From positions 780,001 through 812,000 of the forward strand of contig MGBH01000001.1 in NCBI GenBank assembly GCA_001790095.1: 32,000 nucleotides of DNA, given 5' to 3'. Below the pieces are notes generated by a model that was not told where the DNA came from, made no database searches, and worked only from the letters and a program-made list of their open reading frames with translations. The DNA is from Candidatus Saccharimonadota bacterium (GTDB lineage: Bacteria; Patescibacteriota; Microgenomatia; UBA1406; GWC2-37-13). The position numbers were made by a program, and so were the translations under genes. Position 1 is the first letter of the stretch, and the number at the start of each line of letters is the position of its first letter. Positions 2,124 through 27,527 of this stretch are shown here, piece by piece.

Positions 2124-2125
2124 AC

Positions 2126-2554: not shown

Positions 2555-2702
2555 AAGTATTAGATAAAATGGTAATACTATAAATATACCATGAAATAAA
2601 CCTTTAATAAATGTCAAATTTCAAATTGCAAATATACATGTTAAATATCAAATATTTGAGCTTTACTATGTAGATTTGACATTTGACTTTTTACATTTGA
2701 TA

Positions 2703-4183: not shown

Positions 4184-4186
4184 TAT

Positions 4187-4834
4187 TTACTCATAAATTT
4201 CAAGCTGTAGTTTACCTGTGGTTGGATATGTCACTTGGGCTTTGTCATCAACTAATTTACTAGTCTCTTTACCTTGTGGAGTAAGTGTAAATACATACGT
4301 CCCTGGTTGCTTTGCTTGAAACTCAACTTCGATTAAAACCGTGTCCTCCCATGTGGTTGTGGAGTTATTTTGTAACGATTTGACTCCTGATACAGATAGA
4401 TGGGTTGGCCTGTTAAAAGGATATATTTTAAACTCAGGAAGCATAGATGTAGCTTTGATAAACTCAAACCCCTGCTTTTCATAACCGATTACTCCATCAT
4501 ACCCAACAATAGATTTTCCCTGAGATATTGCAGACAATATCAATGTAAATTGAGTATTCTTCTTATATCTTTTTTCATTATCCTTTGTGGAGAGTCTCAT
4601 AGAGCCTAAGGTGGGATAAGGAATCAAGGTTGGAGTGATAGATGGAAAAAGTACTGGAGAAACCATTATGTCTGCTTGCTTCTGGATGGAATTTTTTTTC
4701 CGCACACCAGACCACACCATTATGCCCGCAAGCACTATGAGTATTATGAAAAGAAAGATAATAACAACTTTGTTTTTACTTTTCTTTGGGGACTCTATTG
4801 TTGTTTGAGGAAGGGGGGTATAATGCTGTTCCAT
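4187..4834 (-). CDS. N-terminally anchored cohesin-like beta-sandwich protein (hypothetical)
   Basis: TM segment VVIIFLFIILIVLAGIMVWSGV. The C-terminal region resembles the neighbouring cohesin-like modules (FTLILSAISQGKSIVGYDGVIGYEK...IEVEFQAKQPGTYVFTL). The ATG at 4834 is preceded by GAGGAG-N7. The alternative ATG at 4852 overlaps the upstream gene by 14 nt. Confidence 0.45.
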   Translation of the reverse strand: MEQHYTPLPQTTIESPKKSKNKVVIIFLFIILIVLAGIMVWSGVRKKNSIQKQADIMVSPVLFPSITPTLIPYPTLGSMRLSTKDNEKRYKKNTQFTLILSAISQGKSIVGYDGVIGYEKQGFEFIKATSMLPEFKIYPFNRPTHLSVSGVKSLQNNSTTTWEDTVLIEVEFQAKQPGTYVFTLTPQGKETSKLVDDKAQVTYPTTGKLQLEIYE

Positions 4835-4838
4835 AGTA

Positions 4839-8173: not shown

Positions 8174-8178
8174 ATTAG

Positions 8179-9972: not shown

Positions 9973-11418
9973 TTATACCGGCTCCAAACCCCACCAAGGC
10001 AACCAATTCCGAAGCTGAAAAGCAGACTTAGACAAAGGATAATAATAGGTAAGCGGACTAAAGAAAATATATACTGCTACTACAAATCCAAAAATGATCA
10101 AAACTGCTACATAAAATTTCGTATTGTTCTTTTTCAATTTCTCCTCAAACAGATACTCCAGCATCATAAATGCAAGTATCAAACTTAAAATAAGCGGAAT
10201 AAAGTAATGATACAGATACATCACTCTTTCCAGACTCAGCATTGCACCCATGTAGATGATATAAAGTAAAACAAACGATAAAATGCAAAAAAATAATCGT
10301 TTATTTTTGATAGGGGTTTTAAATGCCAAGTGGGATACGACCAAGTTGACAGCAAAGAATATTCCCATAATTCCAATGAGCCAAATCATCGGATTACCCT
10401 GTAAATATAAATATCTTACACTCTCCCCATCTCTTTCCCAACGATAATTGATTGATTTGTTGCCAAATGGCCAAGCCACAGGAAGACTACCATTTTCTCC
10501 TGGCTTACATGCATCGTATTTTGGTACTCCTTTTTCATAATGGGAGATAAATCCCAAGTGCTCGCCCAATTGAAGAGGAAAAGTCGCAGGGTTTGATGAT
10601 CGTCCTCGCTTCAATAAGGCTCTATAGACATCTGATGCCTGAGAATATCTTTCCTCAAGAGGAGATTTGGCAAGTATGAAATGCAGACAATACACATTGA
10701 CAAAAACAATAATCGATGCAAGGACAAAAAGTGCAATTTTCACAATGATCTCACTCCATCGTATTGTTTTATGATACTCCCACACAAGAAGAATGATTAG
10801 TATCAAACCCAGTATCGCGCCGTTTAACTTAATCGAAATGACCGCCCCATACAATAATCCCAAAACTACATATGATGGAAAAGTGTTCTTATGCAAGGAA
10901 GAGCTTACCAACCAAAAAAAATAAAGTAAAAACAAAAGTATGAAAAATATCTGCGTTCCCTCAAGCATCGCCCCCCTGCTATGGACAATGATGGCGTTTT
11001 CAAAAAGATATACAGATGTAAATAAAAATGATAATGCAGGCTTATGCGACAATATATATAAAATGAGAAAAAAAAGAAGGGTACTTAGGAAAGCAAAAAA
11101 TGTCGGAAAAAATCTAACCCCTTTAAATGAATACCCTTGAGGAATGTCTTTAATATAGTCGGCCGTGAGAAAAGAAGATGTGTCAATTTGATCGTTCGGA
11201 TGTAATATATATTCTCCAAGAGCAATAAACATCTTACCGAGCGGGGGGTGTGGCTCCATAAAAAAAACTCCGTTCAAGTATTTTTGAGCAGATGCGATGT
11301 GATAGTTTTCATCCCAAAAAAGATTGGGAGGGTAAGAATAATTACGAAAATAAGTAAAATATGAAATGATGAGAATAAGAAAACTAAAAAGAATCAGCTG
11401 GGTTTTCTTATGCATCAT
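9973..11418 (-). CDS. PMT-family (GT39) protein O-mannosyltransferase-like polytopic membrane glycosyltransferase
   Basis: Loop-1 motif LFWDENYHIASAQKYL...FFMEPHPPLGKMFIALG matches the PMT D-E and HPPLGK signature. It is followed by many TM helices. Confidence 0.75.
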   Translation of the reverse strand: MMHKKTQLILFSFLILIISYFTYFRNYSYPPNLFWDENYHIASAQKYLNGVFFMEPHPPLGKMFIALGEYILHPNDQIDTSSFLTADYIKDIPQGYSFKGVRFFPTFFAFLSTLLFFLILYILSHKPALSFLFTSVYLFENAIIVHSRGAMLEGTQIFFILLFLLYFFWLVSSSLHKNTFPSYVVLGLLYGAVISIKLNGAILGLILIILLVWEYHKTIRWSEIIVKIALFVLASIIVFVNVYCLHFILAKSPLEERYSQASDVYRALLKRGRSSNPATFPLQLGEHLGFISHYEKGVPKYDACKPGENGSLPVAWPFGNKSINYRWERDGESVRYLYLQGNPMIWLIGIMGIFFAVNLVVSHLAFKTPIKNKRLFFCILSFVLLYIIYMGAMLSLERVMYLYHYFIPLILSLILAFMMLEYLFEEKLKKNNTKFYVAVLIIFGFVVAVYIFFSPLTYYYPLSKSAFQLRNWLPWWGLEPV

Positions 11419-11456
11419 TTATCTATGATATCACCAATAAACTTAAATTACAAAAC

Positions 11457-11753
11457 TCAAATAACTCTCAGTAGTCTAAAGAGCGCAAAGCTTATGAAGT
11501 AGAAAAGCACGATCTGGAAAAAAGGAAGATATAGAGTCAAGAAAATTGTAACAATCGCAAGGATAAAAAAAGCTTCATTGTGGATAGCCGGTAATAGTCC
11601 CTTGGTAAGCAACATCAGAATAATGAGGGTGAGAAGGATGCGGGGGTTAAACCAAATAAGTGGCCAACCGAAAAACATGGCAACTCCTATAAGGATAGCC
11701 GCCAGTATAAGAAATATTTCTTTTGTATCAAAATAAAATGGACCGAGATACAT
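11457..11753 (-). CDS. Small polytopic membrane protein (hypothetical)
   Basis: About 98 aa, almost entirely hydrophobic helices. The track's TTG start at 11789 is the TTGACA -35 box, and the ATG at 11753 (MYLGPFYF) fits the promoter geometry. Confidence 0.5.
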   Translation of the reverse strand: MYLGPFYFDTKEIFLILAAILIGVAMFFGWPLIWFNPRILLTLIILMLLTKGLLPAIHNEAFFILAIVTIFLTLYLPFFQIVLFYFISFALFRLLRVI

Positions 11754-11760
11754 ATTATTA

Positions 11761-11789
11761 AATTTAGAATGTTTGAACTTAAATGTCAA
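11761..11789 (-). promoter_or_regulatory. Internal promoter-like element
   Basis: On the minus strand: TTGACA (11789-11784), N17, TAAATT (11766-11761), N7, ATG at 11753. Confidence 0.4.
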
Positions 11790-11801
11790 ATGATAAAGAT
11801 A

Positions 11802-12191
11802 TTATCTCTTTAGAATTTCCACTCCCTCCGGCACCACATATACTACTTCTTCCGATTTGTCACCTTTTTTTTCTTTTATGGATTTCTTTACCCAGTTCAC
11901 TTTACTCATATCGTAGTCCATTACATATACGTTTTCTTTACTTTTTGCCTGTACACCTTTTGCGATGCTTTGAAAGGGTATTTGAACAAGTTCTTGTTTT
12001 GTCTTTTCTGTCTGACCTTCCTGCGTTTTGACTAATTTTAATTTGGATGCAATATACTTGACCAAGTTAGGCCTCATCGTGGGTGAATTGTTTGGAAAAA
12101 CTATTTTATGAAGCAATATACTGATCATAAAAGCACAAAATAAAGTAAATATAATCTTAATATATTTAATTATTTTATCTTTTATACTCAT
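11802..12191 (-). CDS. Small N-terminally anchored protein (hypothetical)
   Basis: TM segment IIFTLFCAFMISILL followed by a K/E-rich soluble part. Only a 1-nt gap separates it from the upstream gene. Confidence 0.45.
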   Translation of the reverse strand: MSIKDKIIKYIKIIFTLFCAFMISILLHKIVFPNNSPTMRPNLVKYIASKLKLVKTQEGQTEKTKQELVQIPFQSIAKGVQAKSKENVYVMDYDMSKVNWVKKSIKEKKGDKSEEVVYVVPEGVEILKR

Positions 12192-12192
12192 A

Positions 12193-14178
12193 TTATTCGT
12201 TTGAGTTAATGGTTAAATCGATGGTCGAATTTCCTAGACTTGTGTCACCTTCTATTATTTGTGATGGTAACATCATTGATGTTCCCCCCCCTGTCATATA
12301 AGTAAGTTGTGCTTGAATCCTTTTTCCAGCCAAACTTGTACACCACGGGATAGTAAATGTTTTCTCCGTAGCTGAGCCTATATTTTTTACATCTACGTTC
12401 GTATAGGCAGTACTGTAGACTGTTTCATTATCGCCTCGTAAATCATTTCGAAACAGATCTACTCTTATTGAGTTTTCTTGAATGTTATTCCGATAAAGAG
12501 AACAGAAAAAACCATTGTATATACAATCATTTTGAGGAACACTACCTTGCATCCTACCTGTATAGACAATATTCAGATTTACATCCATATTGTAACCCGT
12601 ACTGTTATCCCGAATATCTGCAGAACTACAACCGCCTGGGGTATTTACGACAGTAGGATTTGCACCGCCAGAGCCAACAGCTACAATCGGTAAATAGGCC
12701 CTATAGGTCGCCGATGTAGTTGGAACTACTTTCCAGTATAAATCAATATAACCACGATCATAGTCTGCTGGCATATTGGGGATTGTTCCGCTCACCGTAT
12801 TTCCATCAGTATAGGTACCACCGGTATGACATGTAACGTTGTTTTCGCATTTTGAATATTGACATGCATAACCTGTCGGAGCAGTACAAGTTGCTGTATA
12901 TGAATCTCCTACTACAAAACTAGAGACACCATATGGAGCGTTGTGTTGTGATAGACTAAATGTCTGTTGGTCTACGCCATTATTTTTTACATTAATTTGA
13001 ACTGCGGAAGGTAGAGTAACTCCATCTTCAAGAATCAACCTTCCTTGAACCATCCCTGGTGGAGCTGTATCTCCAATAAGAGTCACCACTATTCCTCCGT
13101 CTAAAGTACAACTGCTTATTCTTTGATAGTTTGGTGATGATTTCCATTGACCATTTTCGTCTAAAACATATACATAACAATCACTGGGTATGCTTGTACC
13201 GTTAGGATATGTATGGGTTAGAGTAAATGCTCCATATGTCGTCCTTGTCTCGCTAATCTGTTGATAGTCTGCATTGGTGATACCAACTCGCCAATTATGG
13301 GGATTACCCGAAAGAGTACCTGTAATATTATATGATCTTGAAGCAGTAACTGGACAACACCATCCATTATTACATGTCCCGACAGCACATGTGTCTCCAC
13401 TACATGCATCACCTATATATTCTCCCCCTCCATCCGTACATGGAGATGCTGGAGCCGAAGATGCCTCAACATATTTACAACATTTTCCATAGTCCTCACC
13501 ATCTATACACCATCCTTTTTCAGTTCTGCTGTAATCACACTCCCTATTTATAACACAGTCGTTTTCTCTACAGGTATCTGAGATGGCGGGATGTGTGGGA
13601 GTAGGAGCACTTGTAGGTGATGGAGTCACAATCGGAATACAACATCGATATTCATCCTCACCTCCTGGCTTATCAATACAATATCCACTAACCCTTCCCA
13701 CAAGACAATCTCCACTGTTAGAGGTACAATTGCCCGGTCGTGAGCAATCTAATTCATCTGGCGACAATGTGGGTACTAGTGTTAGTCCTGTTTGAGTCGG
13801 TGCCGGAACTTCAGTTGGAGTTGGGGTTGAAGTTGGAATCCCTGTATAACGTTTGATTGATCTACACATGTTGCGTGGGCCTTCATCTCCCCATTGTTTT
13901 TTCTCTCCGTCATAATAATAATTATTGCCTTCATAATGAAGACATCCATACGAAAATTCAGTTGAACTTATTGCGGTACAATTAAGACAACCAGATTCTT
14001 CATCATCACATGTGGTAAAACACCATTTTGTTGGGTCATATACTATACCAGCAGCGCGCGATCCTGTCGTCTTTTTGTCTTTAAGAAATACTGACGACAC
14101 TGCAGCAGTAATGGTGATAACAAGAAGAGTACCTATAGTAAGAATAGTTGCGATCTCCGCTCGTTCGTGTTGTCTCAT
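12193..14178 (-). CDS. Membrane-anchored/secreted Cys-rich modular protein (hypothetical)
   Basis: N-terminal TM segment ATILTIGTLLVITITAAVSSVFL. Three Cys-rich modules each end in CC and are separated by Thr/Pro linkers. A large C-terminal beta-rich region follows. Confidence 0.6.
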   Translation of the reverse strand: MRQHERAEIATILTIGTLLVITITAAVSSVFLKDKKTTGSRAAGIVYDPTKWCFTTCDDEESGCLNCTAISSTEFSYGCLHYEGNNYYYDGEKKQWGDEGPRNMCRSIKRYTGIPTSTPTPTEVPAPTQTGLTLVPTLSPDELDCSRPGNCTSNSGDCLVGRVSGYCIDKPGGEDEYRCCIPIVTPSPTSAPTPTHPAISDTCRENDCVINRECDYSRTEKGWCIDGEDYGKCCKYVEASSAPASPCTDGGGEYIGDACSGDTCAVGTCNNGWCCPVTASRSYNITGTLSGNPHNWRVGITNADYQQISETRTTYGAFTLTHTYPNGTSIPSDCYVYVLDENGQWKSSPNYQRISSCTLDGGIVVTLIGDTAPPGMVQGRLILEDGVTLPSAVQINVKNNGVDQQTFSLSQHNAPYGVSSFVVGDSYTATCTAPTGYACQYSKCENNVTCHTGGTYTDGNTVSGTIPNMPADYDRGYIDLYWKVVPTTSATYRAYLPIVAVGSGGANPTVVNTPGGCSSADIRDNSTGYNMDVNLNIVYTGRMQGSVPQNDCIYNGFFCSLYRNNIQENSIRVDLFRNDLRGDNETVYSTAYTNVDVKNIGSATEKTFTIPWCTSLAGKRIQAQLTYMTGGGTSMMLPSQIIEGDTSLGNSTIDLTINSNE

Positions 14179-14248: not shown

Positions 14249-14277
14249 TTGACATTTGGCATTTGACTTTTTATAAT
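14249..14277 (+). promoter_or_regulatory. Consensus sigma70-type promoter for the HTH gene
   Basis: TTGACA (14249-14254), N17, TATAAT (14272-14277), N10, ATG at 14288. Confidence 0.6.
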
Positions 14278-14287
14278 AGAGCATACT

Positions 14288-14512
14288 ATGTCTCTCAAAA
14301 ACAAACTCGTAACAAAAGTATCACTTTCCGACCTACCCGATCTTCTGACCATTCGTGAAGTAGCAGGCCTTCTGCGAGTAAGTTCTCTTACTATCAAACG
14401 TTGGGGTAAAAAAGGTAAACTTCCAGCTATTCGCATAAACTCCCGCGGTGACCGCCGTTATAAAAAAGCGGTAGTACTCAAACTTCTTGGAGAGATAACT
14501 GAAGGAGTATAA
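14288..14512 (+). CDS. Excisionase/MerR-type helix-turn-helix DNA-binding protein
   Basis: LLTIREVAGLLRVSSLTIKRWGKKGKLPAIRI is a typical excisionase-family HTH. The gene is preceded by a consensus promoter. Confidence 0.7.
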   Translation: MSLKNKLVTKVSLSDLPDLLTIREVAGLLRVSSLTIKRWGKKGKLPAIRINSRGDRRYKKAVVLKLLGEITEGV

Positions 14513-14523
14513 AAAGAATCTGA

Positions 14524-14904
14524 CTACTTTGTAATCCATCCTCCGATATTTTTTATTATGTTCCAAATAAACCTAAATGGAGAAGTGAGAGAAGACCATG
14601 TCTGTTTTGCAATCTGGGTTATTTGAGTAAGGGAGATTTGCTTTCCTTGTTTTACAACGGGTGTATCATATCCCGTTGCCTCATCTCCAGGTCCTGCTAT
14701 AGGTTCAGGCACCGCTTGACTACTAGCTTTTGCTTCCTCAAGCATCTGCATGGCTTGTTGCATTGCCTGTTGCTCTGCCAATGAAGACGCTTGATCTGGA
14801 ACATCATGAGGTGGTTGTTCAACAGGAAGAGCCTCCTGGATCTCTGAGGGTCGATCTTGTTCAGATTGCGGAGGTAATGAAAAAGTCTCTGCTGTGTCTA
14901 CCAT
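14524..14904 (-). CDS. Acidic Q/E/P-rich 126-aa protein with hydrophobic/amphipathic C-terminus (hypothetical), last gene of the cassette operon
   Basis: The ORF starts 15 nt after the P1 stop. It has a low-complexity acidic N-terminus and a C-terminus FRFIWNIIKNIGGWITK. Confidence 0.45.
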   Translation of the reverse strand: MVDTAETFSLPPQSEQDRPSEIQEALPVEQPPHDVPDQASSLAEQQAMQQAMQMLEEAKASSQAVPEPIAGPGDEATGYDTPVVKQGKQISLTQITQIAKQTWSSLTSPFRFIWNIIKNIGGWITK

Positions 14905-14919
14905 ATATAGAGTATTATA

Positions 14920-17058
14920 CTATGGAATCTTTCGCAGTATATTCGTTGCGTGGGTCGCAACCCAGTTTATTCCTTTCTCACTAACTCTGCTTGTTGCACC
15001 AAGAGCAGCTGAAGGAACCGCTCCAACATTAGCAAGAGTGTTTATTACCCTTGCCGACTGTGTAGCAAGATTAAATGTTTGACCTGCATTCAAGGCAAAA
15101 CCTCCTCCCAAGGTAAACACTCCTGCTCCAATTCCACCTGCAACAGCCAAGACTTTCATAAGACGCTTTGACCCTTGCGTCCAGTCTTTACCTACGATAG
15201 CTTTTAGTTTTTCAGCTGACAGTGCTCCTCCATCAAGAAGATCATATTCGCCAAGCATCTTCGCGGCTGCTTCAATCTCTTTTTCACGACCTGCTATGGC
15301 TTTATCAAAAAAACCAGAATCTGGACCGTAAGCATGACGCAAAAACTCTGCTTCACCTTTTTTCAGTTTCATGCGGTCAAAATAATACCCTCTTGCCCAT
15401 GCATATCCCAACATATCTGGTACTTTTTCCGCTGCAATACTATCATATAGAGTATCAGGAAGTTGATTCAATACATCACGCAGTGCCAAGGGCGGAGTAC
15501 CCTTACCCAACCCCATATCTTCAAACATTCTCTTTATTTCTTTTCCATACTCTACCGGCATACTATACCTTTCACGATAAATTCGTTCAAGCATGCCTCG
15601 TGCAAGTTTTCTGGGACTCTGTGACAGTAAATCTTTGTGCATAAAATCTTTAATGGCACGATCATCCCAACCAGCTACTTTGCCGTTTTTATACTTGAGG
15701 AATGATATTTTTAGATATTTGTCCAACATCTCTTTCGCCTTATCTTCACGTGCTTTTTTCTCATCTGCTTCTTTTTGTTTTCCCTCTGCCTTCATAGCTT
15801 CATCAGCCTGTACAGCCCGATCTGCTGCAGTTAGTGTGATCTCATTCCAATACCGTTTCATTTCCTCAGATAAAGCTGTATCCATTTTACGTCTATATTT
15901 GTCCGCATATTGACTCCGTTCACCTTCAAGCTGTAACATCTCTCTTTCGGCTTGATTTATGGTCACCAACTCCGCATCCAAACTACCTTTTTTAGTCGTA
16001 GCCTCACTATAATCTTTCATGTCTTGAAAACGTTGCTCAAGACTTGTATCAGTCAATTCCCCATCTAAATAGGTAAGAGGACTTAATGAATTTACTAACG
16101 AATCATACTTTGCTCTTCTGTCTGCATAAACATCTGCGACACCCTTTACTGGGGGCTTATTTATATCCGGATAGCGCGTTTCATAAGCTGTAATGTCTGC
16201 ATTAAGTCTTGTCAAACACCTTTGCACTTCAGTTTGAGTCATTTTAATTGGCCTGTATGTCTCATCTGAGATTTTCGCAACTTGAGCATTTAGTCTGTTA
16301 TACCAATAATTTGCTTTATTTAATTCATCGGTTGATGTGAATTTTCCTTTTACTGTTGTTATTGTTTTATCCGCATCATCTTTTTCTTTTTGTTTTTCAG
16401 CCTTGTTTTTTATTTTTTCACGTCTGTTTTCTATCTCTGATGCTTTTACAGCATCTTCTGCCGGCATTGATAATGCTGACAAATTCTTTGCAATCCGTTT
16501 GCCCAACTTATCACTGCTTAAAAAAGTTGCAACAAGTTCGTTTATAGCTTTCCGTTCATCCGGAGTAACTACTACTCCCCCCTTACCTGAGACAAACTGT
16601 TTCACTTGATCGATCGTCAACCTTCCACCACTCACCAAAGAGATTGATTCACAAAATCCAGGAAGATTTACCATAATATTTACCATTTCTCCTCTTTCCT
16701 CAGGTGTCATGGATAAGAATCCTTCGTTGTTAAGAAGTTTGTCATAGACTCCATATCGTCTCATAAGTCGATCATGTCTTTTTAGCAAATCAGCCTTTTT
16801 CCCAGGATCTGTCTCTGCATCAACGCGTTTTTTTTCATCGTCCAAAACTCGTCGCATCTGATCAAAATTCACCATTGTATCCTCTTCATTCTCAGCTAGT
16901 TCAGCTTCAAACATAGATTTGCCACCCAGCTTTTTTTGGCGTTCTGCTAGTGCTGCTATTTCTTTATTGAGTATAGGAGCTCTTCCTGCCTCAGGAGCAA
17001 GCGCTGCTGCGATATGTTTTATCGCGATTGATTCTTTTGATGTAGTTGTATCTGTCAT
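14920..17058 (-). CDS. Cassette large protein P1: 712-aa charged helical protein with C-terminal Gly/Ala-rich hydrophobic region (unknown family)
   Basis: Long ORF with no signal peptide and an E/K/R/D-rich body. C-terminus LAVAGGIGAGVFTLGGGFALNAG...VGAVPSAALGA. The ATG lies 1 nt after the S1 stop. Confidence 0.7.
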   Translation of the reverse strand: MTDTTTSKESIAIKHIAAALAPEAGRAPILNKEIAALAERQKKLGGKSMFEAELAENEEDTMVNFDQMRRVLDDEKKRVDAETDPGKKADLLKRHDRLMRRYGVYDKLLNNEGFLSMTPEERGEMVNIMVNLPGFCESISLVSGGRLTIDQVKQFVSGKGGVVVTPDERKAINELVATFLSSDKLGKRIAKNLSALSMPAEDAVKASEIENRREKIKNKAEKQKEKDDADKTITTVKGKFTSTDELNKANYWYNRLNAQVAKISDETYRPIKMTQTEVQRCLTRLNADITAYETRYPDINKPPVKGVADVYADRRAKYDSLVNSLSPLTYLDGELTDTSLEQRFQDMKDYSEATTKKGSLDAELVTINQAEREMLQLEGERSQYADKYRRKMDTALSEEMKRYWNEITLTAADRAVQADEAMKAEGKQKEADEKKAREDKAKEMLDKYLKISFLKYKNGKVAGWDDRAIKDFMHKDLLSQSPRKLARGMLERIYRERYSMPVEYGKEIKRMFEDMGLGKGTPPLALRDVLNQLPDTLYDSIAAEKVPDMLGYAWARGYYFDRMKLKKGEAEFLRHAYGPDSGFFDKAIAGREKEIEAAAKMLGEYDLLDGGALSAEKLKAIVGKDWTQGSKRLMKVLAVAGGIGAGVFTLGGGFALNAGQTFNLATQSARVINTLANVGAVPSAALGATSRVSEKGINWVATHATNILRKIP

Positions 17059-17059
17059 A

Positions 17060-17356
17060 TTATTTGGTGTGTAAAAATTGTTGTAGATGCTCTATCACCT
17101 TTTCTTCATGGTACTCGTTGATCTGCCCCTTTACCCGAACGAGTGCATTGGTAAATGCAGGATAGACCTTTACCAAACCGTCTATAAATGTTATCACTTC
17201 TTCAAATGTCTGAGCAGGATCCATATTATTTAAGATTTTACGCGACAAAAGCCTTCGTTCATAGGTACCAATCATCCCTTGACGCAACAAGTCAAGATAC
17301 CCTTCAGCTAAGATGTCATAGATCCGCTTTTTTTCATCTGGTGATAAAATCCGCAT
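17060..17356 (-). CDS. Cassette small protein S1 (98 aa, helical, unknown family)
   Basis: Paralogue of S2 and S3, sharing the blocks IYDxLA, EE(L/V)(I/L)xF(I/L)xxL, YPA(F/Y) and LxxFL. Confidence 0.65.
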   Translation of the reverse strand: MRILSPDEKKRIYDILAEGYLDLLRQGMIGTYERRLLSRKILNNMDPAQTFEEVITFIDGLVKVYPAFTNALVRVKGQINEYHEEKVIEHLQQFLHTK

Positions 17357-17361
17357 AAATA

Positions 17362-19560
17362 TTAGTTTTCACTAAATGCATCCATTGTTTTTTTAGCAGC
17401 AACTCCTGTCAAAGCGGCACCTGCTACTTCACCTGCGATCCTTGATGTACCATGACCGATAAACGCTGCGCCCGCTCCTTTCAATGCATTTATTGCAGGA
17501 AGACCTGCTGCTCCACCCAATGCCCCTCCCCCTACACCTAATAACACCGCCAATACATACCAAAGCCATTTCATATTATGATCTATCTTTACACCCTGTG
17601 CTTCCAAACTTCTCATAGCAGCAGCAGCTTCTGTATTTTCTTCAAGACCCTTTGTGATCTCAGGCTCATACAGTTTGAGCATCTGCTGCCATTCGCCCCG
17701 TTTGAATCCGAGCTTACCACTTACTGCCTCCATCCCAAACCCAAAGTTCCAAGAACGATCACCTATGGTACGTGCGGCCAGTAGATCAGCAAATAATTTG
17801 TCACGATACTCCTGACCTGTAAGTTCAAAGACTTTGTTAAGTTGAGTAAGATCTTCTGCTGTAAGTAATTGAGCTCCTGTTTCATCAGTCCCATCAATGA
17901 CATTGAGTTTATCAAAATGTGTCAGGCTGATAGTATATGCTCCTCCTCCAGGCATAGTTCTTTGTTTTCCATGAAACAGATCTCTTGCAATAAGTTGTTT
18001 CAAAGCCATATCTTTATCGTAGGTAAATCCAAGATGAGTTACATCTTTTTTTATCTGATCTTTATTAACAGTCTTCTTATGGGTTGTAGCGTCAAAGCCA
18101 ATCCAGTTACTATTCATTTTCTTCTTTAATTCAAGAACCAGTTTTTGTATATCTTGTTCTGCCTTTTTCTGATCTTCGGTACTAAGTCTCCCATTACGTT
18201 CTTGCATAACATCATATCGCTCTTCAAGTACATCAGCGATAGATTGACCAAGGATACCATCCATCAAGCCACAAAGATCTTCCTCTTCCACTATACGAAT
18301 AACCTGTGATTTGCGCATGTCTTCAGTAGTCTTCGGCAATACTTTAATTTGAAGATCAAGATCAGCTGCTTTTAACTCCGCCTGTTTTGCTTCCATCGTA
18401 AGTGTTGAAAAGGCAGAATTTCGATAGAGAGGTAAAATGCGTGTTTTAAACAACGTCAAGTCTGGGTTTACTGCTGGATAGGCTGTATTTAATCTTCCCA
18501 TTTCTGATACTGTTCTCTTATAATCAATTACTTCTTGAAGAGATGCGTTCCTTGGATCTGTTAACCAAGCAGTAGTTGGTGGATTTGTCGCACCCTTTGC
18601 AACAAGCTGTGCAACCAAATCAATACGCTGTTTTGGCAATTCTAGGACCAATTGTTTTAAATCAACAAGAATCGTATGACCTTTACCGAGTGCGCTTTCC
18701 GCAATAGTATCTGCTGCTGTCTCGGCAGTCAGACTGCCCTTGATAAGAGTGTTTATCTCCACTTGGGTATAAGCTGCTATCGTTACAGGATTAACAATTC
18801 CTTGTCCATCAAGAAGAGCCTTTAGACTTTTTGATTTTTGTTCCAATCTCTCCTCTTCGACTTGCTTTTGTTGCTCCATTTCAATTCTTTTTTCGTCTGT
18901 TGCAATAGGAGTAAGTTCAAGTGCACTTTTATATGCCTCTTGCATACGAGTACCAAGACGGCTTGCCAATCGACCATCCTCAGCCGGCATAAGTGTTTTT
19001 TCTATAAAATCTCTTCTCTGTGGATCTGTTAAAGGTGGAACATGAGCGCTTATTTCGGGAAACATCGCAATAAATGAAGAGTCCCTTGCGATTGAGTCAA
19101 GTACTGTGTCTCTTAATGCAGTAAAGGCTGTACCTGATCTTTCTCCAATTGCAGAACATATGTCTTTATCTTTTAGTAGTGCGGTTTGTTCTGTTGCAGA
19201 TAACATTCGCAGTTCAAGAAATAAGGCAATCTTTGCATCTTTATGCAAAACTTCCTGTGCTTTTTTATATGATGCCTTCTCCGATGAGCTCATTTTAGTA
19301 ACATCTTCTTTGCCGCCTCCAAATCTTTTCAAAAAATCAGCGGTTGAACGCACATTATATCTTGTCTCGCCATCCTTTAAAGCAAGCGCTGCACGCATTG
19401 TTTCTTTTCCACCTGCCGGTCGTACTGTACGGAGTCTATCAGCTCTCTGTACTGATTGTTCACCTCGTTGTCCAGCGGTCCAAACAACTCCATGTTCTCC
19501 TCCTGCGGCTAATACTCCTAATCTATCCAACACCGGTTGTTCTGTGGCTGTTGCGGTCAT
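17362..19560 (-). CDS. Cassette large protein P2: 732-aa charged helical protein with C-terminal Gly/Ala-zipper region (unknown family)
   Basis: Long ORF with no signal peptide. C-terminus WLWYVLAVLLGVGGGALGGAAGLPAINALKGAGAAFIG. The ATG lies 3 nt after the S2 stop (TAAcatATG). Confidence 0.7.
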   Translation of the reverse strand: MTATATEQPVLDRLGVLAAGGEHGVVWTAGQRGEQSVQRADRLRTVRPAGGKETMRAALALKDGETRYNVRSTADFLKRFGGGKEDVTKMSSSEKASYKKAQEVLHKDAKIALFLELRMLSATEQTALLKDKDICSAIGERSGTAFTALRDTVLDSIARDSSFIAMFPEISAHVPPLTDPQRRDFIEKTLMPAEDGRLASRLGTRMQEAYKSALELTPIATDEKRIEMEQQKQVEEERLEQKSKSLKALLDGQGIVNPVTIAAYTQVEINTLIKGSLTAETAADTIAESALGKGHTILVDLKQLVLELPKQRIDLVAQLVAKGATNPPTTAWLTDPRNASLQEVIDYKRTVSEMGRLNTAYPAVNPDLTLFKTRILPLYRNSAFSTLTMEAKQAELKAADLDLQIKVLPKTTEDMRKSQVIRIVEEEDLCGLMDGILGQSIADVLEERYDVMQERNGRLSTEDQKKAEQDIQKLVLELKKKMNSNWIGFDATTHKKTVNKDQIKKDVTHLGFTYDKDMALKQLIARDLFHGKQRTMPGGGAYTISLTHFDKLNVIDGTDETGAQLLTAEDLTQLNKVFELTGQEYRDKLFADLLAARTIGDRSWNFGFGMEAVSGKLGFKRGEWQQMLKLYEPEITKGLEENTEAAAAMRSLEAQGVKIDHNMKWLWYVLAVLLGVGGGALGGAAGLPAINALKGAGAAFIGHGTSRIAGEVAGAALTGVAAKKTMDAFSEN

Positions 19561-19563
19561 ATG

Positions 19564-19872
19564 TTATGCATGCAAAAAATTTGCTAATTTGCTTTGAATT
19601 TCCTGTATCTTTGCCTGATCCTGCACTTCTTTTTTTTGCCCTTCATAACGGACTAGCTCTATTGCATAGGTCTTCCATTTTTCTCCCAGTGTCCGCAAAA
19701 ACTCAAGAAGTTCTTCCTCTGTTTTTATGGTATCCAAGGTTTCCAAGATATATGTACATGATTGTTTCATCTCTTTAAAAGGTAGATCATCGCGCTCGAC
19801 TGCATCGATCATCAGATCTGCCAGATCGTCGTAAATTTTTGTTCGTTCGGCCTCTGTTATAGTTTGCCCCAT
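19564..19872 (-). CDS. Cassette small protein S2 (102 aa, helical, unknown family)
   Basis: Paralogue of S1 and S3. It is preceded by its own promoter-like element in the 51-nt gap after P3. Confidence 0.65.
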   Translation of the reverse strand: MGQTITEAERTKIYDDLADLMIDAVERDDLPFKEMKQSCTYILETLDTIKTEEELLEFLRTLGEKWKTYAIELVRYEGQKKEVQDQAKIQEIQSKLANFLHA

Positions 19873-19878
19873 ATTATA

Positions 19879-19907
19879 AATATGTACTATCGTGCACTAA
19901 TTTGCAA
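19879..19907 (-). promoter_or_regulatory. Internal promoter-like element before S2
   Basis: On the minus strand: TTGCAA (19907-19902), N17, CATATT (19884-19879), N6, ATG at 19872. Confidence 0.35.
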
Positions 19908-19923
19908 GAGAATATTTGTTGCC

Positions 19924-22065
19924 TTAAATGGCATTATCCTCTTTCTTTTTAAAACCACTTACTCCACCTAAAAGTAATAAAAGCAAAAACCAAAAGGAAC
20001 CGCCTCTTTTTGTATCAATACCTTTTTCATTTAGAATGTCAGCTAGTGTCCTTCCCGAATCTCTTGATTCCTGATACGCTGCTTTCACCATATCAGCTCC
20101 CAAATATGCTGCAAGATCAGCAGATTGACCATGACTAAGTTTTAAGTCATCTCGTGAACCCAACACCTCCATCTGTCCTCTCTGCCCCAATATCCCTCTG
20201 AATGGGGGTTTCAGTGCAATAAAATAGTCAGACATGATTTCCTGGGTGAGTCGAGCACCTTGTCCTGCGTGTATTTGGTCAAGTAGTTTACGATCTTCTA
20301 CCGACAACTGTTCATATCTAACTGTCTCCCAAGTAGCCGGTATCTTTTTTTGCGATACTCCTTCTCTATAAGGAAGACCCTTTTCGTCAACAAAATACCT
20401 CGGTATTGGTTGTGGAGGATTACCACCATCCATCTTTATGATACCTCTTTCATCAGTCTCATATAAAGCAACTACGGGATGTTCTCCTTCTGATAGATCG
20501 CGTAGTTCGATTCTCCTGACTCCTTCTTCTTTATCTTGAGCTATACGTCTTACGTCTTCACCGATTCCTTTTCTGTGTATTATTGTTTTTCCTGTTGTTG
20601 CATCAGTCTCAACCCCATGATGTCCTTGGTTACGTTGCAACGCAAGTATTCCATCACTCAAACGAACATCTCCTTGTTCAGCAGCATCAAGCGCATCTGC
20701 CTGTGCCTTACGATCATTTATCTCCCTTAGATCTCGATAATCATTCCAGAGTACTTCCTGAACACTATCCTCTAATGCCTCTGCCATCTGTTGTCTTAAC
20801 TCTTCTTGTTTTAATACTCGCTCTGACGCCTTTTGTTGGTCACCGCTTGCAGGAGTTTTTGCTGCCCTTTCTACTCTCTCACTTGCTGTCAAATTATCCT
20901 GTATCTGTCTGATTTCATCACGCACGCCTCCTGCACTTACCAAAGCACCTCTAATATAGGTTTGTTTCCCGAAGACTGCATCTTCAATATCTCTTATGGT
21001 TTGTTCTTGAGCCTCAGAAATACTTGGTTGAGGAAGACCTTCATTTCGAGTTCTCAACGCTACATACTCTTTTACTCTTGGATCAGATTCATTCCCCCGT
21101 AAATAATCATCCAAATTGAGTGGACCCTCCTTATGAGGTCCTTTTTCGTGAGCTTCTTGAAACTCTTTTTCCAATGCCTTCATACGACGTTGCTCTTCTC
21201 GTGCATGATAGTCGGCTGGTTTTATACCGTTTTGTTCAAGAGTAAGATCAAACAAACGTATCTCTATTTCTTCGATAGATTGGCCACTCGCAATCATTCT
21301 TTCTATATCTGCATCATTTATTTTTTCTCCTACTTTCCCTAGTCTTGCTTTCAACCTATCTATGGTCACTTTTCTATCAGCAGCAAGTTCTGTCTTTTTT
21401 TCTTGAGCCGTTTGTTTTGCAACTTCTGCTGGATCTTCAGGAAGTTGTATAGCTTCATGTGATATTCTATGCATGCGATCCATGTACTCCCTCCTCACTC
21501 CTTCGTGGCTTGCTGCGTAAGCTTCAACTGCGATCAATTGATCTTTAGGCGTCATCTGATCAAAACCAGGAATAGCTTCTCTAACATACTCCATCTTTGA
21601 CATTCGTTCAAGTACTGCTGTTCGTGTGTTATCAAATTCTGAAGGGGTGAGTTTGCGCGATTTACAAATATCAGCTATGGGTTTACCGGTCCTTCTTGAC
21701 TCATCCACGACTGACGAATATGTATCAAACTGTCTCGCTTCCAATGCTAGCTGAGGATCAACCCGATCAAGCTGGCTTAATTCAGTAGGAGATAAAGACG
21801 TAGTAGTTCCACGACCTTCACGCATTGCCAGACCAGGATCTTCATGTGCTCTGTCATAATCAACAAGTTCCTTTCCTCTTCTTTGTGCATCTTCCAACTG
21901 CTTTCCTCTTTGATCATCTGGTCTAAACGGTGACTCAAGTTTTCTCGGTCCATTTTGTTCTGCAGCGGGTCTATGATCTCGCATTGCAGCTTCCCTTTGT
22001 AAAGGGGGTGGCGGACGTGGAGCTCTTTCGGCTACTGAGACTGGTACTGATCTAGAAATTGCCAT
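19924..22065 (-). CDS. Cassette large protein P3: 713-aa charged protein with R/P-rich N-terminus and C-terminal tail anchor (unknown family)
   Basis: Long ORF. N-terminus VAERAPRPPPPLQREAAMRDHRPAAEQ. C-terminus GGSFWFLLLLLLGGVSGFKKKEDNAI. The ATG lies 3 nt after the S3 stop (TAAcatATG). Confidence 0.7.
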   Translation of the reverse strand: MAISRSVPVSVAERAPRPPPPLQREAAMRDHRPAAEQNGPRKLESPFRPDDQRGKQLEDAQRRGKELVDYDRAHEDPGLAMREGRGTTTSLSPTELSQLDRVDPQLALEARQFDTYSSVVDESRRTGKPIADICKSRKLTPSEFDNTRTAVLERMSKMEYVREAIPGFDQMTPKDQLIAVEAYAASHEGVRREYMDRMHRISHEAIQLPEDPAEVAKQTAQEKKTELAADRKVTIDRLKARLGKVGEKINDADIERMIASGQSIEEIEIRLFDLTLEQNGIKPADYHAREEQRRMKALEKEFQEAHEKGPHKEGPLNLDDYLRGNESDPRVKEYVALRTRNEGLPQPSISEAQEQTIRDIEDAVFGKQTYIRGALVSAGGVRDEIRQIQDNLTASERVERAAKTPASGDQQKASERVLKQEELRQQMAEALEDSVQEVLWNDYRDLREINDRKAQADALDAAEQGDVRLSDGILALQRNQGHHGVETDATTGKTIIHRKGIGEDVRRIAQDKEEGVRRIELRDLSEGEHPVVALYETDERGIIKMDGGNPPQPIPRYFVDEKGLPYREGVSQKKIPATWETVRYEQLSVEDRKLLDQIHAGQGARLTQEIMSDYFIALKPPFRGILGQRGQMEVLGSRDDLKLSHGQSADLAAYLGADMVKAAYQESRDSGRTLADILNEKGIDTKRGGSFWFLLLLLLGGVSGFKKKEDNAI

Positions 22066-22068
22066 ATG

Positions 22069-22374
22069 TTATATTGATGCAAACTGTCTTAACCTTGCCT
22101 GTAATGCTTCCATTTTCTTTTTATCTTTTTGCGCTGCTTCTTCTTGTTTAAAAGATACGTATACGCCTTTATATGCTGGATATGTATTGGCTAATGATTG
22201 AAGAAATAAAAGAAGTTCTGTATAACTTTCAATTCCATCAAGATTCCTCACTATCTTCCGTGAAGACACCTCCGAATCATCCACCGTCATCTCCCCTTTT
22301 TTAAGGGCTGAGGTCATCGCCTCTAGTAGCAATTGATAAGCCTTTTTTTGTAGATCTTTAAGTATTACGTCCAT
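22069..22374 (-). CDS. Cassette small protein S3 (101 aa, helical, unknown family)
   Basis: Paralogue of S1 and S2. The track's TTG start at 22413 is a TTGATA -35 box, and the ATG at 22374 (MDVILKDL) fits the -35/N17/-10/N10/ATG geometry. Confidence 0.6.
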   Translation of the reverse strand: MDVILKDLQKKAYQLLLEAMTSALKKGEMTVDDSEVSSRKIVRNLDGIESYTELLLFLQSLANTYPAYKGVYVSFKQEEAAQKDKKKMEALQARLRQFASI

Positions 22375-22384
22375 GTAATATTTT

Positions 22385-22413
22385 ATGCTACAGAAAATTG
22401 AACCACATATCAA
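22385..22413 (-). promoter_or_regulatory. Promoter-like element for the cassette operon (S3)
   Basis: On the minus strand: TTGATA (22413-22408), N17, TAGCAT (22390-22385), N10, ATG at 22374. Confidence 0.4.
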
Positions 22414-22449: not shown

Positions 22450-22478
22450 TTGTAATATTCACCATCGTATGATATAAT
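22450..22478 (+). promoter_or_regulatory. Promoter-like element for the 75-aa peptide gene
   Basis: TTGTAA (22450-22455), N17, TATAAT (22473-22478), N10, ATG at 22489. Confidence 0.45.
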
Positions 22479-22488
22479 GATGTATCAT

Positions 22489-22716
22489 ATGGAAGCAAAT
22501 AAAGTTGTACGCGTTGTTACAGAAACCGTAAGAAATGGTGCACTTTTCGCTGCAGCTGGAGCAGGAATCGCCTGGGGACTAGCCTTCCTAAAAGCAGCTA
22601 TCCCAGCCGCTGTACTTGGTGTTATGATACCTGGCGCTCAAATAGGTTTGATAGCAGCTGGAGTACTTGGAGCAATCAACATGGTCGGTGCTCTCGCCTC
22701 TAGTGCAACTGCATAA
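22489..22716 (+). CDS. 75-aa Gly/Ala-rich double-helix membrane peptide (hypothetical)
   Basis: GALFAAAGAGIAWGLAFLKAAIPAAVLGVMIPGAQIGLIAAGVLGAINMVGALASS. TATAAT at 22473-22478 overlaps the track's first ATG, so the ATG at 22489 is preferred. Confidence 0.5.
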   Translation: MEANKVVRVVTETVRNGALFAAAGAGIAWGLAFLKAAIPAAVLGVMIPGAQIGLIAAGVLGAINMVGALASSATA

Positions 22717-22804
22717 TATACTTTTATATTCTCCCCTTGATCTTTCCTCTAAATCCTTTATACTAACACTAATTATTGGATTGATTTTAACTGATTTAAC
22801 CTCT

Positions 22805-23545
22805 ATGAATTGTCCCAACTGTTCTCAACAGATGAGCGTCGTAAACTTCGACAATGAAATAGTTTTGCACTGTACTACCTGCGGTTCAAGTTTTTTTGAC
22901 AAAGACGGTATAAGACACATCTCCTCTGCCTCAGCTCGAAAGATTGCAGAAGACGCACAGGGTCATTACATACTGGGTAATAAAAAGCAGTGCCCAAAGG
23001 ATCATGCTGAACTTGCTCAAAAGATAAATGACCCACAAATCCCAAAAAACACCATCCTTCTTGAGTGTCCGAAATGTTTTGGAATATTTGCTTATCCTGA
23101 TGATTTGCTGAAGTATAAAGGCATCCGTGAACTGACTCCCTTATCTCCTCTTTCCATGAAGCTTCTTCCTGCACCAAAAACTATATTTATGCTGTCTCTT
23201 TTTGCTGTATTTTCTTTTGCTGCCCTTTTAAACTTTGGTGCAATCTCAAGAAATTTTTCATCAGGCTCTAAAGCCGATGAACAGATCAAGAAAGTTGTCT
23301 CAGTATCAGATGACAAAAAACATTACCTCTTTTTTGACTTTATTACTGAAGCTTCTCTTACCTCAAAGGTTCGTTTTATCGATAAGTCAATCAACAAAGA
23401 GATTTTAAAACTGGTTTCTACAGAGCCTAAAAAGATACATCATCTTGTGACGGCAGAACTTGATCTTACTCATGAGATCTATTATCAGATACTTTTGGGA
23501 GATAATGAAAAACCGACTGAGGAGAAGAGACTCGAGATAAAATGA
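22805..23545 (+). CDS. Tandem zinc-ribbon (zf-TFIIB-like) protein with a central TM helix
   Basis: First ribbon CPNCSQQM...CTTCGSSFFDKDGI. Second ribbon CPKDHAEL...CPKCFGIFAYPDDL. TM segment IFMLSLFAVFSFAALLNFGAI. The track start at 22667 overlaps the previous ORF, so the ATG at 22805 is preferred. Confidence 0.55.
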   Translation: MNCPNCSQQMSVVNFDNEIVLHCTTCGSSFFDKDGIRHISSASARKIAEDAQGHYILGNKKQCPKDHAELAQKINDPQIPKNTILLECPKCFGIFAYPDDLLKYKGIRELTPLSPLSMKLLPAPKTIFMLSLFAVFSFAALLNFGAISRNFSSGSKADEQIKKVVSVSDDKKHYLFFDFITEASLTSKVRFIDKSINKEILKLVSTEPKKIHHLVTAELDLTHEIYYQILLGDNEKPTEEKRLEIK

Positions 23546-26775: not shown

Positions 26776-27527
26776 CATCTAACCTACGAGGTTAAAAGTG
26801 GGCCGTTTTAATAATCCAATGATTAATCGATTAATAGTTTTTTTATTTGTTTTAGGTTTTTTTGATAATCTAAGTTATTGTTAACGAACTTTTGATACGT
26901 TTTACCACTTCTTATTGATATTTCCTTAAGCTCACTAAGAATTTCTTCATTAGAGATAATATTCTTAATATGATGAAAATTGCCAATCTTCAGGCTGGGA
27001 AACTAGTCCTCTTGTCGTTGGATTAAGATGAATATAGCGGGACGTATGAAGGAGTTGCTCGTTTGATTTGATCAATACGTAGCGGTATCGAGACTGCCAT
27101 AATGGACCTTTACGATGATATTTTAAATTAAAATAGCGCGTGTAGCTATTTTCAATATCGCTTATATATTTTGATATCGAATATTCGTCTTGTACTTTAA
27201 AAAGTAAGTGATAATGGTCTGGCATAATACAATAACTAAGAATTTTAATTAGAGTGTCTTTTTTTGGAATAATAATATTTGAATACTTATATTTTTTTTG
27301 CTTAAGCGCGATAGAAAAACTCGTCCAAACATGGTGTTTATTGTAATAATCTACCGTTTCTAAAAAACGCTGACTATTTCCATTGGATACAAAAATTGAA
27401 AAATCCGCAATACTCTTGTTGCATATATGATATATTTTTCCGATAACATATTTTTTCTTCATAACATCGATTTTTACTGTTATAACAATCTACATTTGAC
27501 CTGCGAGGTTAAATTTGGGCTGTTTTG
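26776..27527. mobile_element. IS200-like element: Y1 transposase bracketed by same-strand hairpin repeats
   Basis: The 35-nt repeats at 26776-26810 and 27493-27527 match at 28 of 35 positions by my count. Both lie on the + strand and each holds a short stem-loop (TAACCT-acg-AGGTTA; ACCT-gcg-AGGT). The span of about 750 bp fits IS200. Confidence 0.55.
26965..27462 (-). CDS. IS200/IS605-family Y1 (HUH) transposase, RAYT-like
   Basis: IYHICNKS, HUH motif YCIMPDHYHLLF, catalytic-Tyr region SRYIHLNPTTRGLV and PEDWQFSSY. The ORF ends right after SSY, and a +1 frame stays open for 47 more codons. Confidence 0.8.
   Translation of the reverse strand: MKKKYVIGKIYHICNKSIADFSIFVSNGNSQRFLETVDYYNKHHVWTSFSIALKQKKYKYSNIIIPKKDTLIKILSYCIMPDHYHLLFKVQDEYSISKYISDIENSYTRYFNLKYHRKGPLWQSRYRYVLIKSNEQLLHTSRYIHLNPTTRGLVSQPEDWQFSSY

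Follow-up and report, generated by a model that had tools for sequence, protein, structure and literature searches.

Tandem gene pairs for a small helical protein and a large, predominantly tail-anchored helical protein in Roizmanbacteria-like bacteria

The S-P operon and its products

The region described here, referred to as the window, is the whole 32,000 nt stretch from position 780,001 to 812,000 of contig MGBH01000001.1 [GenBank assembly GCA_001790095.1], on which an earlier note had been made from the sequence alone. The ORF list of the window includes seven minus-strand open reading frames (ORFs) in the order S3-P3-S2-P2-S1-P1-A, uninterrupted from 14524 to 22374, in which each of three small genes (S) is followed by a large one (P) and a short acidic gene (A) ends the run. 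The S and P products make up one undescribed family of Roizmanbacteria-like bacteria of the candidate phyla radiation (CPR). Database copies were found in Candidatus Roizmanbacteria bacterium RIFOXYB2_FULL_38_10 for P2 [A2334_00795], S2 [A2334_00800], S3 [A2334_00810] and P1 [A2334_00785].

The earlier note had reported three consecutive S-P pairs and an acidic 126-aa gene between 14524 and 22413, and all seven ORFs are found at the coordinates given there except for the outer limit. Position 22413 is that of an upstream TTG to which the S3 ORF can be extended; the ATG start is at 22374, and the public annotation of A2334_00810 likewise gives 101 aa.

S3 (22069..22374), the first gene of the operon, encodes from this ATG a 101-aa small partner predicted to form four helices. 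P3 (19924..22065) predicts a 713-aa helical protein with a C-terminal membrane anchor, the hydrophobic segment of which (19948..20007, aa 687-706, FWFLLLLLLGGVSGF) is followed by KKKED. The best-conserved S is the 102-aa product of S2 (19564..19872), and P2 (17362..19560), a predicted tail-anchored helical protein of 732 aa, is the most conserved P and the nearest to the single-copy form. Its Gly/Ala-rich hydrophobic segment (17491..17580, aa 661-690) overlaps a helix at 661-680 in the structure model described below and precedes a 42-aa Gly/Ala-rich tail. S1 (17060..17356) encodes the 98-aa small partner of P1 (14920..17058), a divergent 712-aa member of the P superfamily with a Gly-rich hydrophobic segment (15091..15165, aa 632-656) and a conserved 56-aa tail with a terminal Pro. 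The last gene, A (14524..14904), encodes a Pro-rich, acidic protein of 126 aa (net charge -8).

Each S stop codon is 3, 3 or 1 nt from the ATG of the following P, matching the 1-3 nt given in the earlier note. The P-to-next-S gaps are 51 and 5 nt, and P1 and A are 15 nt apart. No tRNA or Rfam elements were found in the window, and promoter and terminator consensus scans gave counts at chance and did not define the transcript ends. GC skew is strongly negative (-0.11 to -0.28) from 15001 to 22000, as is AT skew, across the whole S-P operon because the coding (minus) strand is purine-rich (Glu, Lys, Arg, Asp and Gln).

Membrane topology was called from a hydropathy scan, with the N-terminal check covering the first 60 residues. 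As the earlier note had described, P1, P2 and P3 have no signal peptide; there is no hydrophobic window in these first 60 residues, and each protein has one C-terminal Gly/Ala-rich hydrophobic segment. Across 98 members of the P superfamily an N-terminal hydrophobic segment is found in none and a C-terminal one in 94, and the Gly plus Ala content is 33% in the last 60 residues versus 16% elsewhere. P2 and P3 fit the tail-anchored topological class.

An AlphaFold2 model of P2, built from a 25-sequence alignment (mean pLDDT 74.6, >90 at residues 230-400, pTM 0.42), is nearly all helical, in keeping with the helical body that had been proposed. It includes a 74-residue helix (412-485), small beta elements (487-613) and a terminal helix (661-680), so that a 170-residue alpha/beta-containing domain lies between the long helix and the anchor. 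The S2 model (pLDDT 91.6, pTM 0.74) is confident and has four helices, at 7-26, 32-46, 52-65 and 67-101, the last one of 35 residues.

In the orthologue alignment, P2 is best conserved over its C-terminal 250 residues. Across the P superfamily, near-invariance is confined to a single Arg and a single Gly. A motif scan of P1-3 found no P-loop or other catalytic motif, which agrees with the earlier note, and Walker A/B motifs are absent both from P1-3 and from 49 members of the P1 and P2 families. Internal spectrin-type repeats were not seen in P. The near lack of invariant residues, together with the absence of repeats and catalytic motifs, argues for P being a structural, non-enzymatic protein.

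Protein A is probably disordered, with a C-terminal amphipathic/hydrophobic helix. Its positional orthologues, present in all loci with three pairs and in L018, range from 115 to 203 aa and are only 15-35% identical; the body is acidic and the C-terminal amphipathic segment is conserved. No homology of A to S or P was detected using hhalign.

Relatives, paralogy and synteny

None of the seven proteins gave a significant match in Pfam, PHROGs, NCBIfam or PADLOC, and nothing significant was found for 19 diverse P homologues in Pfam or, family-wide, for the 25 sequences of the P2 family alignment in PHROGs. Searches of PDB by sequence, with the single proteins and with four family profiles, returned only coiled-coil or repeat noise. 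Foldseek comparisons of the P2 and S2 models with PDB, and of P2 with BFVD, gave no significant fold match. The best P2 matches were generic helical/coiled-coil proteins (template modelling [TM] score ≤0.2), and no PDB fold matched S2 with E <3. Among the non-significant P2 matches were the alpha-pore-forming toxins PaxB, XaxB, AhlC and SmhA (E 0.39-1.5, probability ≤0.3, TM ≤0.2). The earlier note had recognised no family name for either partner, and a paper describing such an S-P pair was not found in the literature. As judged from these searches and models, the S and P families are new at the sequence level and, as far as testable, at the fold level. It is these two protein families that the novelty concerns, as neither has a detectable relative in any library searched.

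Several specific identities were considered and rejected. A WXG100/ESX small substrate identity for S finds no Pfam match at E ≤1, there is no WXG motif in S1-3, and the model has four helices. For PE/PPE pairs, no S or P has a Pfam match and the PDB profile searches were negative. An SMC/Rad50/MukB-like ATPase would be expected to have the Walker A/B motifs that P lacks; the Foldseek match to the MukB elbow had E 0.18 and TM 0.07. Known components of type IV secretion systems (T4SS), namely VirB/VirD4 and MPF-FATA Prg/Trs, are not matched by S, P or A in Pfam or NCBIfam, CONJScan profiles not having been run, and a survey of Patescibacteria T4SS lists no such component [PMC12102498]. An Arc/ribbon-helix-helix (RHH) DNA-binding module in P2 (beta-alpha-alpha, 496-529) was suggested by phrog_8214 (E 7.6e-4 for the P2 of the window), but only 2 of 25 orthologues match and there is no Pfam RHH match.

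With the P2 profile, hmmsearch was run exhaustively against 1.84 billion cluster representatives and identified 121 clusters. Almost all of the proteins in them span the full length (~620-780 aa), lack a signal peptide and have a hydrophobic Gly/Ala-rich segment at the C-terminus, typically ending in '...G(I/V)K..K(L/M)KWLLY.L..LG' followed by Gly/Ala-rich sequence, and in none is P fused to another domain. A word-index search recovered 25 P2-type relatives (40-55% identity) and 23 P1-type relatives (35-51% identity), in each case in addition to the identical database copy, and 13 S-type matches that include S2 and S3 themselves. All of the named P2-, P1- and S-type relatives are from Roizmanbacteria or Patescibacteria. 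Six loci were found in GTDB species representatives: two in Roizmanbacteria, one each in a 'Patescibacteria group bacterium' and a 'MAG: bacterium', and two on contigs of a single metagenome-assembled genome labelled Gammaproteobacteria. There were no S-P relatives in 50,697 phage genomes, in plasmids or in IMG/VR. A metagenome scan with a single protein found nothing, and a scan with a subgroup found one short contig only.

The small proteins are clear paralogues, as had been claimed. S1, S2 and S3 share ~29% mutual identity, and their six-genome family profiles match one another in hhalign with probabilities of 97-99% (E 1e-11 to 1e-18). The relationship among the large proteins, described previously as strongly diverged, is also borne out. 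P2 and P3 have a modest BLASTP match (E 2e-6), and their profiles align with 99.5% probability (E 2e-23) over ~540 columns, from residue 75 to the membrane segment. P1 shows no relation to the other P proteins by BLASTP, and comparison of its family profile with that of the P2 family alone yields two collinear matches, both weak (E 4e-4 and 2e-3). Against a 98-sequence P2/P3 superfamily profile, however, the P1 family matches with 97.9% probability (E 5e-13) over 232 collinear columns, and there is a further collinear match (E 4e-5). As this is far beyond the best reversed-profile control (E 0.007), P1-3 can be assigned to one superfamily with P1 as an outlier.

The earlier note had also listed short collinear motifs shared by all three large proteins. 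This holds for P1 and P2, in whose profile alignment MPAED and the GGK region coincide, but not for P3. In the P2/P3 profile alignment the 'MTPKD' of P3 pairs with 'LTDPQ' of P2 (~residue 177), and 'LPEDP' pairs with 'ELTP' (~residue 216) and not with MPAED.

A neighbourhood survey detected 30 S-P pairs in 14 loci (29 tabulated plus L020). The S3-P3-S2-P2-S1-P1-A block recurs with the same flanks in L001, L002, L009, L011, L012 and L013, giving seven genomes with the window. Upstream, the triple loci share genes for a peptidyl-tRNA hydrolase (Pth), a GalT/HIT-like protein and a divergent Zn-ribbon membrane protein; downstream they share a convergent 74-aa HTH_17 gene and then a large surface-protein gene. 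All-against-all BLAST and scoring with hidden Markov models placed each S and P position in its own orthologue group across the seven genomes. The triplication is therefore older than the split between these genomes, has since been preserved whole and is fixed; it is not the actively diversifying array that had been proposed.

Copy number of the S-P unit varies from one to three. L014 (Roizmanbacteria) has one pair at the same locus as the triplet; 450-aa and 220-aa proteins encoded there have no homology to P or A. L018 has two pairs at this locus in the arrangement S-P-S1-P1-A. L019 has two convergent pairs, one with a P so diverged that only hhalign finds it (E 2e-11), and L015, L016, L017 and L020 each carry one pair in unrelated contexts. 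Single pairs in other lineages are located mostly among housekeeping genes (ribosomal, tRNA-synthetase, ATP-synthase and SmpB). Association of S-P with mobile elements, phages or plasmids was not seen. In L011, an insertion (7778-9614) made up of a gene for a 409-aa protein and genes for a YafQ-type toxin and its small partner lies between P3 and S2, and no S is split from its P. In L017 two tandem S-like genes (9174-9996; 153 and 102 aa) precede the single P, and in L016 an HSP20 gene precedes the S (9496-9999), which is extended at its N-terminus by a Pro-rich stretch of 65 residues.

S is immediately upstream of P in all 30 pairs, with gaps mostly of 0-4 nt or overlaps, so the co-occurrence noted in the window extends to every pair surveyed. 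The type of S tracks the type of P (S1 with P1, S2 with P2, S3 with P3), an S1-type being always paired with a P1-type, and the most divergent S belongs to the P1 family, which has the weaker hydrophobic tail. The S and P similarity matrices are correlated (Spearman 0.83, Mantel p ≤5e-4). Part of this correlation is due to shared phylogeny, but co-duplication of the S-P unit is clear despite it.

Rates of divergence were compared as median pairwise identities in six genomes. HTH_17 is the slowest to change (81%), followed by the GalT-like gene (65%), S2 (61%), Pth (58%), P2 and S1 (both 47%), S3 (44%) and P1 (41%). P3, the fastest-evolving P paralogue, is at 29%, the neighbouring surface protein at 23% and A at 20%. 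By this measure, the constraint on the S2-P2 module is close to that on housekeeping genes.

Possible roles of the S-P module

The coupling of S and P, their co-duplication and co-divergence, the tail-anchor topology, the non-enzymatic conservation of P, vertical inheritance and the housekeeping contexts are together best accounted for by an obligate two-subunit module with a tail-anchored large subunit. The reading that is tentatively favoured, at a little short of an even chance for the statement as a whole, is that this S:P module is anchored in the cell's own membrane and forms a non-enzymatic, hetero-oligomeric scaffold on its cytoplasmic face. P, of ~700 mostly alpha-helical residues, would be made in the cytoplasm without a signal peptide and fixed in the cell membrane by a Gly/Ala-rich segment of the 'glycine-zipper' type. 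As this segment is at the extreme C-terminus, ~650 residues would face the cytoplasm. S, a predicted compact four-helix protein with a long C-terminal helix, would be translated just before P from the same mRNA and may bind it in a 1:1 ratio, whether to stay as a permanent subunit or to help in assembly. In the Roizmanbacteria lineage the unit would have been duplicated twice, long ago, and the three diverged modules, co-expressed with the acidic and putatively membrane-seeking protein A, would probably assemble, partly via their Gly-rich membrane segments, into one hetero-oligomeric scaffold that may organise or tether something at the envelope. Among the roles raised in the earlier note, that of a partner or chaperone for S and of a membrane tether for P are plausible, and S-P looks like a stably inherited cell structure rather than a fast-changing weapon array.

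Several observations weigh against this scaffold. P1, which the earlier note had credited with the same C-terminal segment as P2 and P3, has a weakly hydrophobic tail; a mean Kyte-Doolittle value of 1.3 is reached by 8 of 24 P1 orthologues and the other 16 are below it. Residues beyond the hydrophobic segment are conserved, namely 'DVNGN' in many P2 orthologues and 'TLxNVG...SRxGxxAI' with a terminal Pro in the P1 orthologues. A simple anchor would not need them, which hints at a function outside the membrane plane, and from their sequences the C-terminal tails of P2 and P1 appear to have a role beyond anchoring. The rate at which P3 and A evolve matches that of the neighbouring surface protein. 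Two of the ~8 independent contexts place S-P close to pilus or secretion genes: in L020 two T4SS_pilin (PF18895) genes (48-782) are directly upstream and in the same orientation, and in L015 a complete type IV pilus cluster (576-9550; PilB, PilC, PilM and pilins) is divergent from S-P. Finally, physical binding of S to P, formation of a hetero-oligomer and the scaffold role itself are what we infer, and the cytoplasmic orientation of P is deduced from hydropathy.

P might instead be a secretion substrate, a reading that is considered unlikely. P would be exported independently of Sec via the Patescibacteria T4SS/type IV pilus and its Gly-zipper C-termini would insert in a host membrane. That P would act there as an anchor or pore-former, with S as a cytoplasmic chaperone or adaptor dedicated to maintaining P in solution and delivering it, is equally doubtful. 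Chaperone-substrate pairs such as VirE1-VirE2 and Lap-LXG typically have this order, with a small helical gene first and its large partner translationally coupled to it. The pilin and pilus genes of L020 and L015, the VirD4/TraG-like coupling ATPase encoded in the window (78-2123), the fast evolution of P3 and A and the conserved motifs after the membrane segment would fit, as would the toxins PaxB, XaxB, AhlC and SmhA being among the best fold matches. However, the matches to pore-formers are non-significant (E ≥0.18, TM ≤0.2), and the coupling ATPase is 12 kb from the S-P operon, beyond an unrelated surface-protein operon. Adjacency to pilin genes may be due to chance, since Microgenomatia have a great many pilin arrays, at scattered positions [PMC12102498]. 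Export is further disfavoured by the mostly housekeeping contexts, by strict vertical inheritance with a copy number fixed in the clade, and by the near-housekeeping rate of S2 and P2. The more specific proposal that S-P is the adaptor and cargo of the repurposed, relaxase-less T4SS/type IV pilus of Patescibacteria, with S passing the Gly-zipper-tailed P to it and the three P paralogues forming a tether or conduit in the host membrane for epibiotic attachment, is more improbable still.

Tail-anchored proteins require post-translational targeting, and S might instead be a transient holdase or targeting factor, functionally like Get3 or SGTA, that shields the Gly-rich hydrophobic P tail until insertion and is absent from the finished structure, while the three P proteins act independently. 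S is always made just ahead of P, L017 has two S-like genes for one P, and the most divergent S goes with the P1 family, the tail of which is less hydrophobic, all of which speak for it, but we judge it improbable. A generic holdase need not co-duplicate and co-diverge with each P, and one S would serve three, yet three S genes are kept in seven genomes, each P having its own co-diverging S. Conservation of S2 as the best-conserved component of its module (61% median identity) is as expected for a structural subunit. Two further readings are essentially excluded. Tandem paralogous pairs with strongly diverged P, together with fast-evolving P3 and A, recall the polymorphic toxin/immunity or defence array suggested in the earlier note, P being the toxin and S its immunity protein or adaptor. 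This is highly improbable as the paralogues form stable orthologue groups whose order is fixed, the C-terminal region of P2 is the most conserved part and not a swappable toxin domain, toxin, immunity and PADLOC models are not matched, mobile elements are absent from the neighbourhood, and the plasmid and phage collections contain no relatives. Immunity genes are also usually downstream of toxin genes, whereas here the small gene is upstream. The remnant of a prophage module, for example tape-measure-like proteins and their chaperones, is if anything even harder to credit. Long helical proteins are preceded by small helical ones, and weak PHROG and BFVD matches to tape-measure and SMC-like proteins were obtained, but none of these is significant (E ≥0.0077, TM <0.15), and coiled-coil composition typically gives rise to such matches; the sole PHROG tape-measure match has E 0.062, and all BFVD matches have TM <0.15. 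There are no phage genes nearby, the neighbours being cellular, no relatives occur in the phage genomes or IMG/VR, and chromosomal synteny is conserved.

S-P resembles a number of characterised systems in outline. As in the PE/PPE and EsxA/EsxB pairs of mycobacterial ESX systems, a ~100-residue helical protein is encoded directly upstream of a larger helical partner and co-translated with it, a 1:1 complex is presumed, and the pair has been duplicated several times. However, no PE, PPE or WXG100 Pfam match was obtained for S-P, S has four helices in place of a hairpin or WXG motif, P has a C-terminal anchor, and the EccC/EssC machinery of ESX loci is absent from the S-P locus. VirE1-VirE2 of the Agrobacterium T4SS and Lap-LXG of type VIIb secretion systems likewise have a small acidic or neutral helical protein upstream of, and coupled to, a large partner with a membrane-active region. 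They have no homology to S-P, and differ in that P is vertically inherited, with a conserved C-terminus instead of variable effector domains, and is near secretion genes in just the two contexts described above.

A further comparison is with tail-anchored coiled-coil membrane proteins such as syntaxin-type SNAREs, and with EzrA, a bacterial membrane-tethered scaffold that is N-terminally anchored. They share with P a large helical domain (in P, presumed to be cytoplasmic), one membrane segment placed at a terminus, the lack of catalytic motifs and a presumed organising or tethering role. P has no sequence or fold match to them and no spectrin-like repeats, and it differs in having the 170-residue alpha/beta-containing domain, an obligatory small partner and a Gly/Ala-rich anchor, often with a long conserved tail. 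The pore-forming systems XaxAB/PaxAB/YaxAB, AhlABC, SmhABC, Hbl and Nhe also comprise two or three diverged, elongated helical paralogues encoded side by side, each with one hydrophobic membrane-inserting element. P is twice as long, however, with its hydrophobic element at the extreme C-terminus, and S-P, which includes a small partner gene, lies on the chromosome with conserved synteny in a lineage of non-pathogens.

Roughly half of all CPR/Patescibacteria genes have no assigned function, and to our knowledge the envelope organisation and host contact of these ultra-small cells are largely unknown. S-P is a coherent and delimited unit of two co-evolving families with confident structure models, no detectable relative, a clear topology and one to three copies per genome. 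As a membrane scaffold, it would represent a lineage-specific element akin to a cytoskeleton; as secretion cargo, it would be one of the first substrates to be put forward for the Patescibacteria T4SS, which is itself enigmatic. The case also illustrates that tandem paralogous pairs beside surface-protein genes need not be conflict systems.

Neighbouring genes

The gene convergent with the operon end (14288..14512, plus strand) encodes a 74-aa HTH_17/MerR-type DNA-binding protein. Pfam HTH_17 is found at the same position in L001, L002, L009, L011-L014 and L018, always convergent to the operon end, and the 74-aa orthologues compared are 78-92% identical, making this the gene with the highest conservation in the neighbourhood. 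A perfect TTGACA-17-TATAAT at 14249-14277 (plus strand) ends ~10 nt before its ATG, so the transcript would be nearly leaderless. On the other side, and divergent from S3, is a gene (22477..22716, plus strand) for a 79-aa Gly/Ala-rich protein with two transmembrane segments, which has positional orthologues of 68-72 aa in L001, L002, L012 and L018. The HTH_17 and two-transmembrane genes are syntenic neighbours and candidates for membership of the system. The following gene (22667..23545, plus strand) encodes the Zn-ribbon (PF13453) membrane protein, the start of which is probably an ATG near 22805 as its orthologues are 236-248 aa.

The S-P operon adjoins an envelope-protein operon (2703..14178, minus strand). 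It includes genes for a Cys-rich 661-aa protein, two small proteins and a PMT-type protein O-mannosyltransferase, and CARDB, dockerin, cohesin and fn3/purple-acid-phosphatase-N domains are encoded; its first protein evolves very fast (23% median identity). The PMT mannosyltransferase gene is next downstream in the window, L009 and L013, and dockerin or cohesin proteins are encoded downstream in the window, L002 and L018. The earlier note had drawn on this adhesion operon to suggest host interaction. The operon is real and syntenic within Roizmanbacteria, but the link to host interaction is unsupported because single pairs in other lineages are in unrelated, mostly housekeeping contexts. The 'DVNGN' of P2 orthologues recalls half a dockerin calcium loop, and cohesin and dockerin proteins are encoded in this adjoining operon; the P2 of the window (aa 690-732) ends in '...FSEN' instead.

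The 681-aa VirD4/TraG/TrwB-like coupling ATPase (78..2123, plus strand) at the start of the window matches Pfam TrwB_AAD_bind (3.7e-12), T4SS-DNA_transf and TraG-D_C. Towards the other end is an IS200-like Y1 transposase gene (26965..27462, minus strand; Pfam Y1_Tnp, 2e-12), with trehalase and hexokinase-like genes further on.

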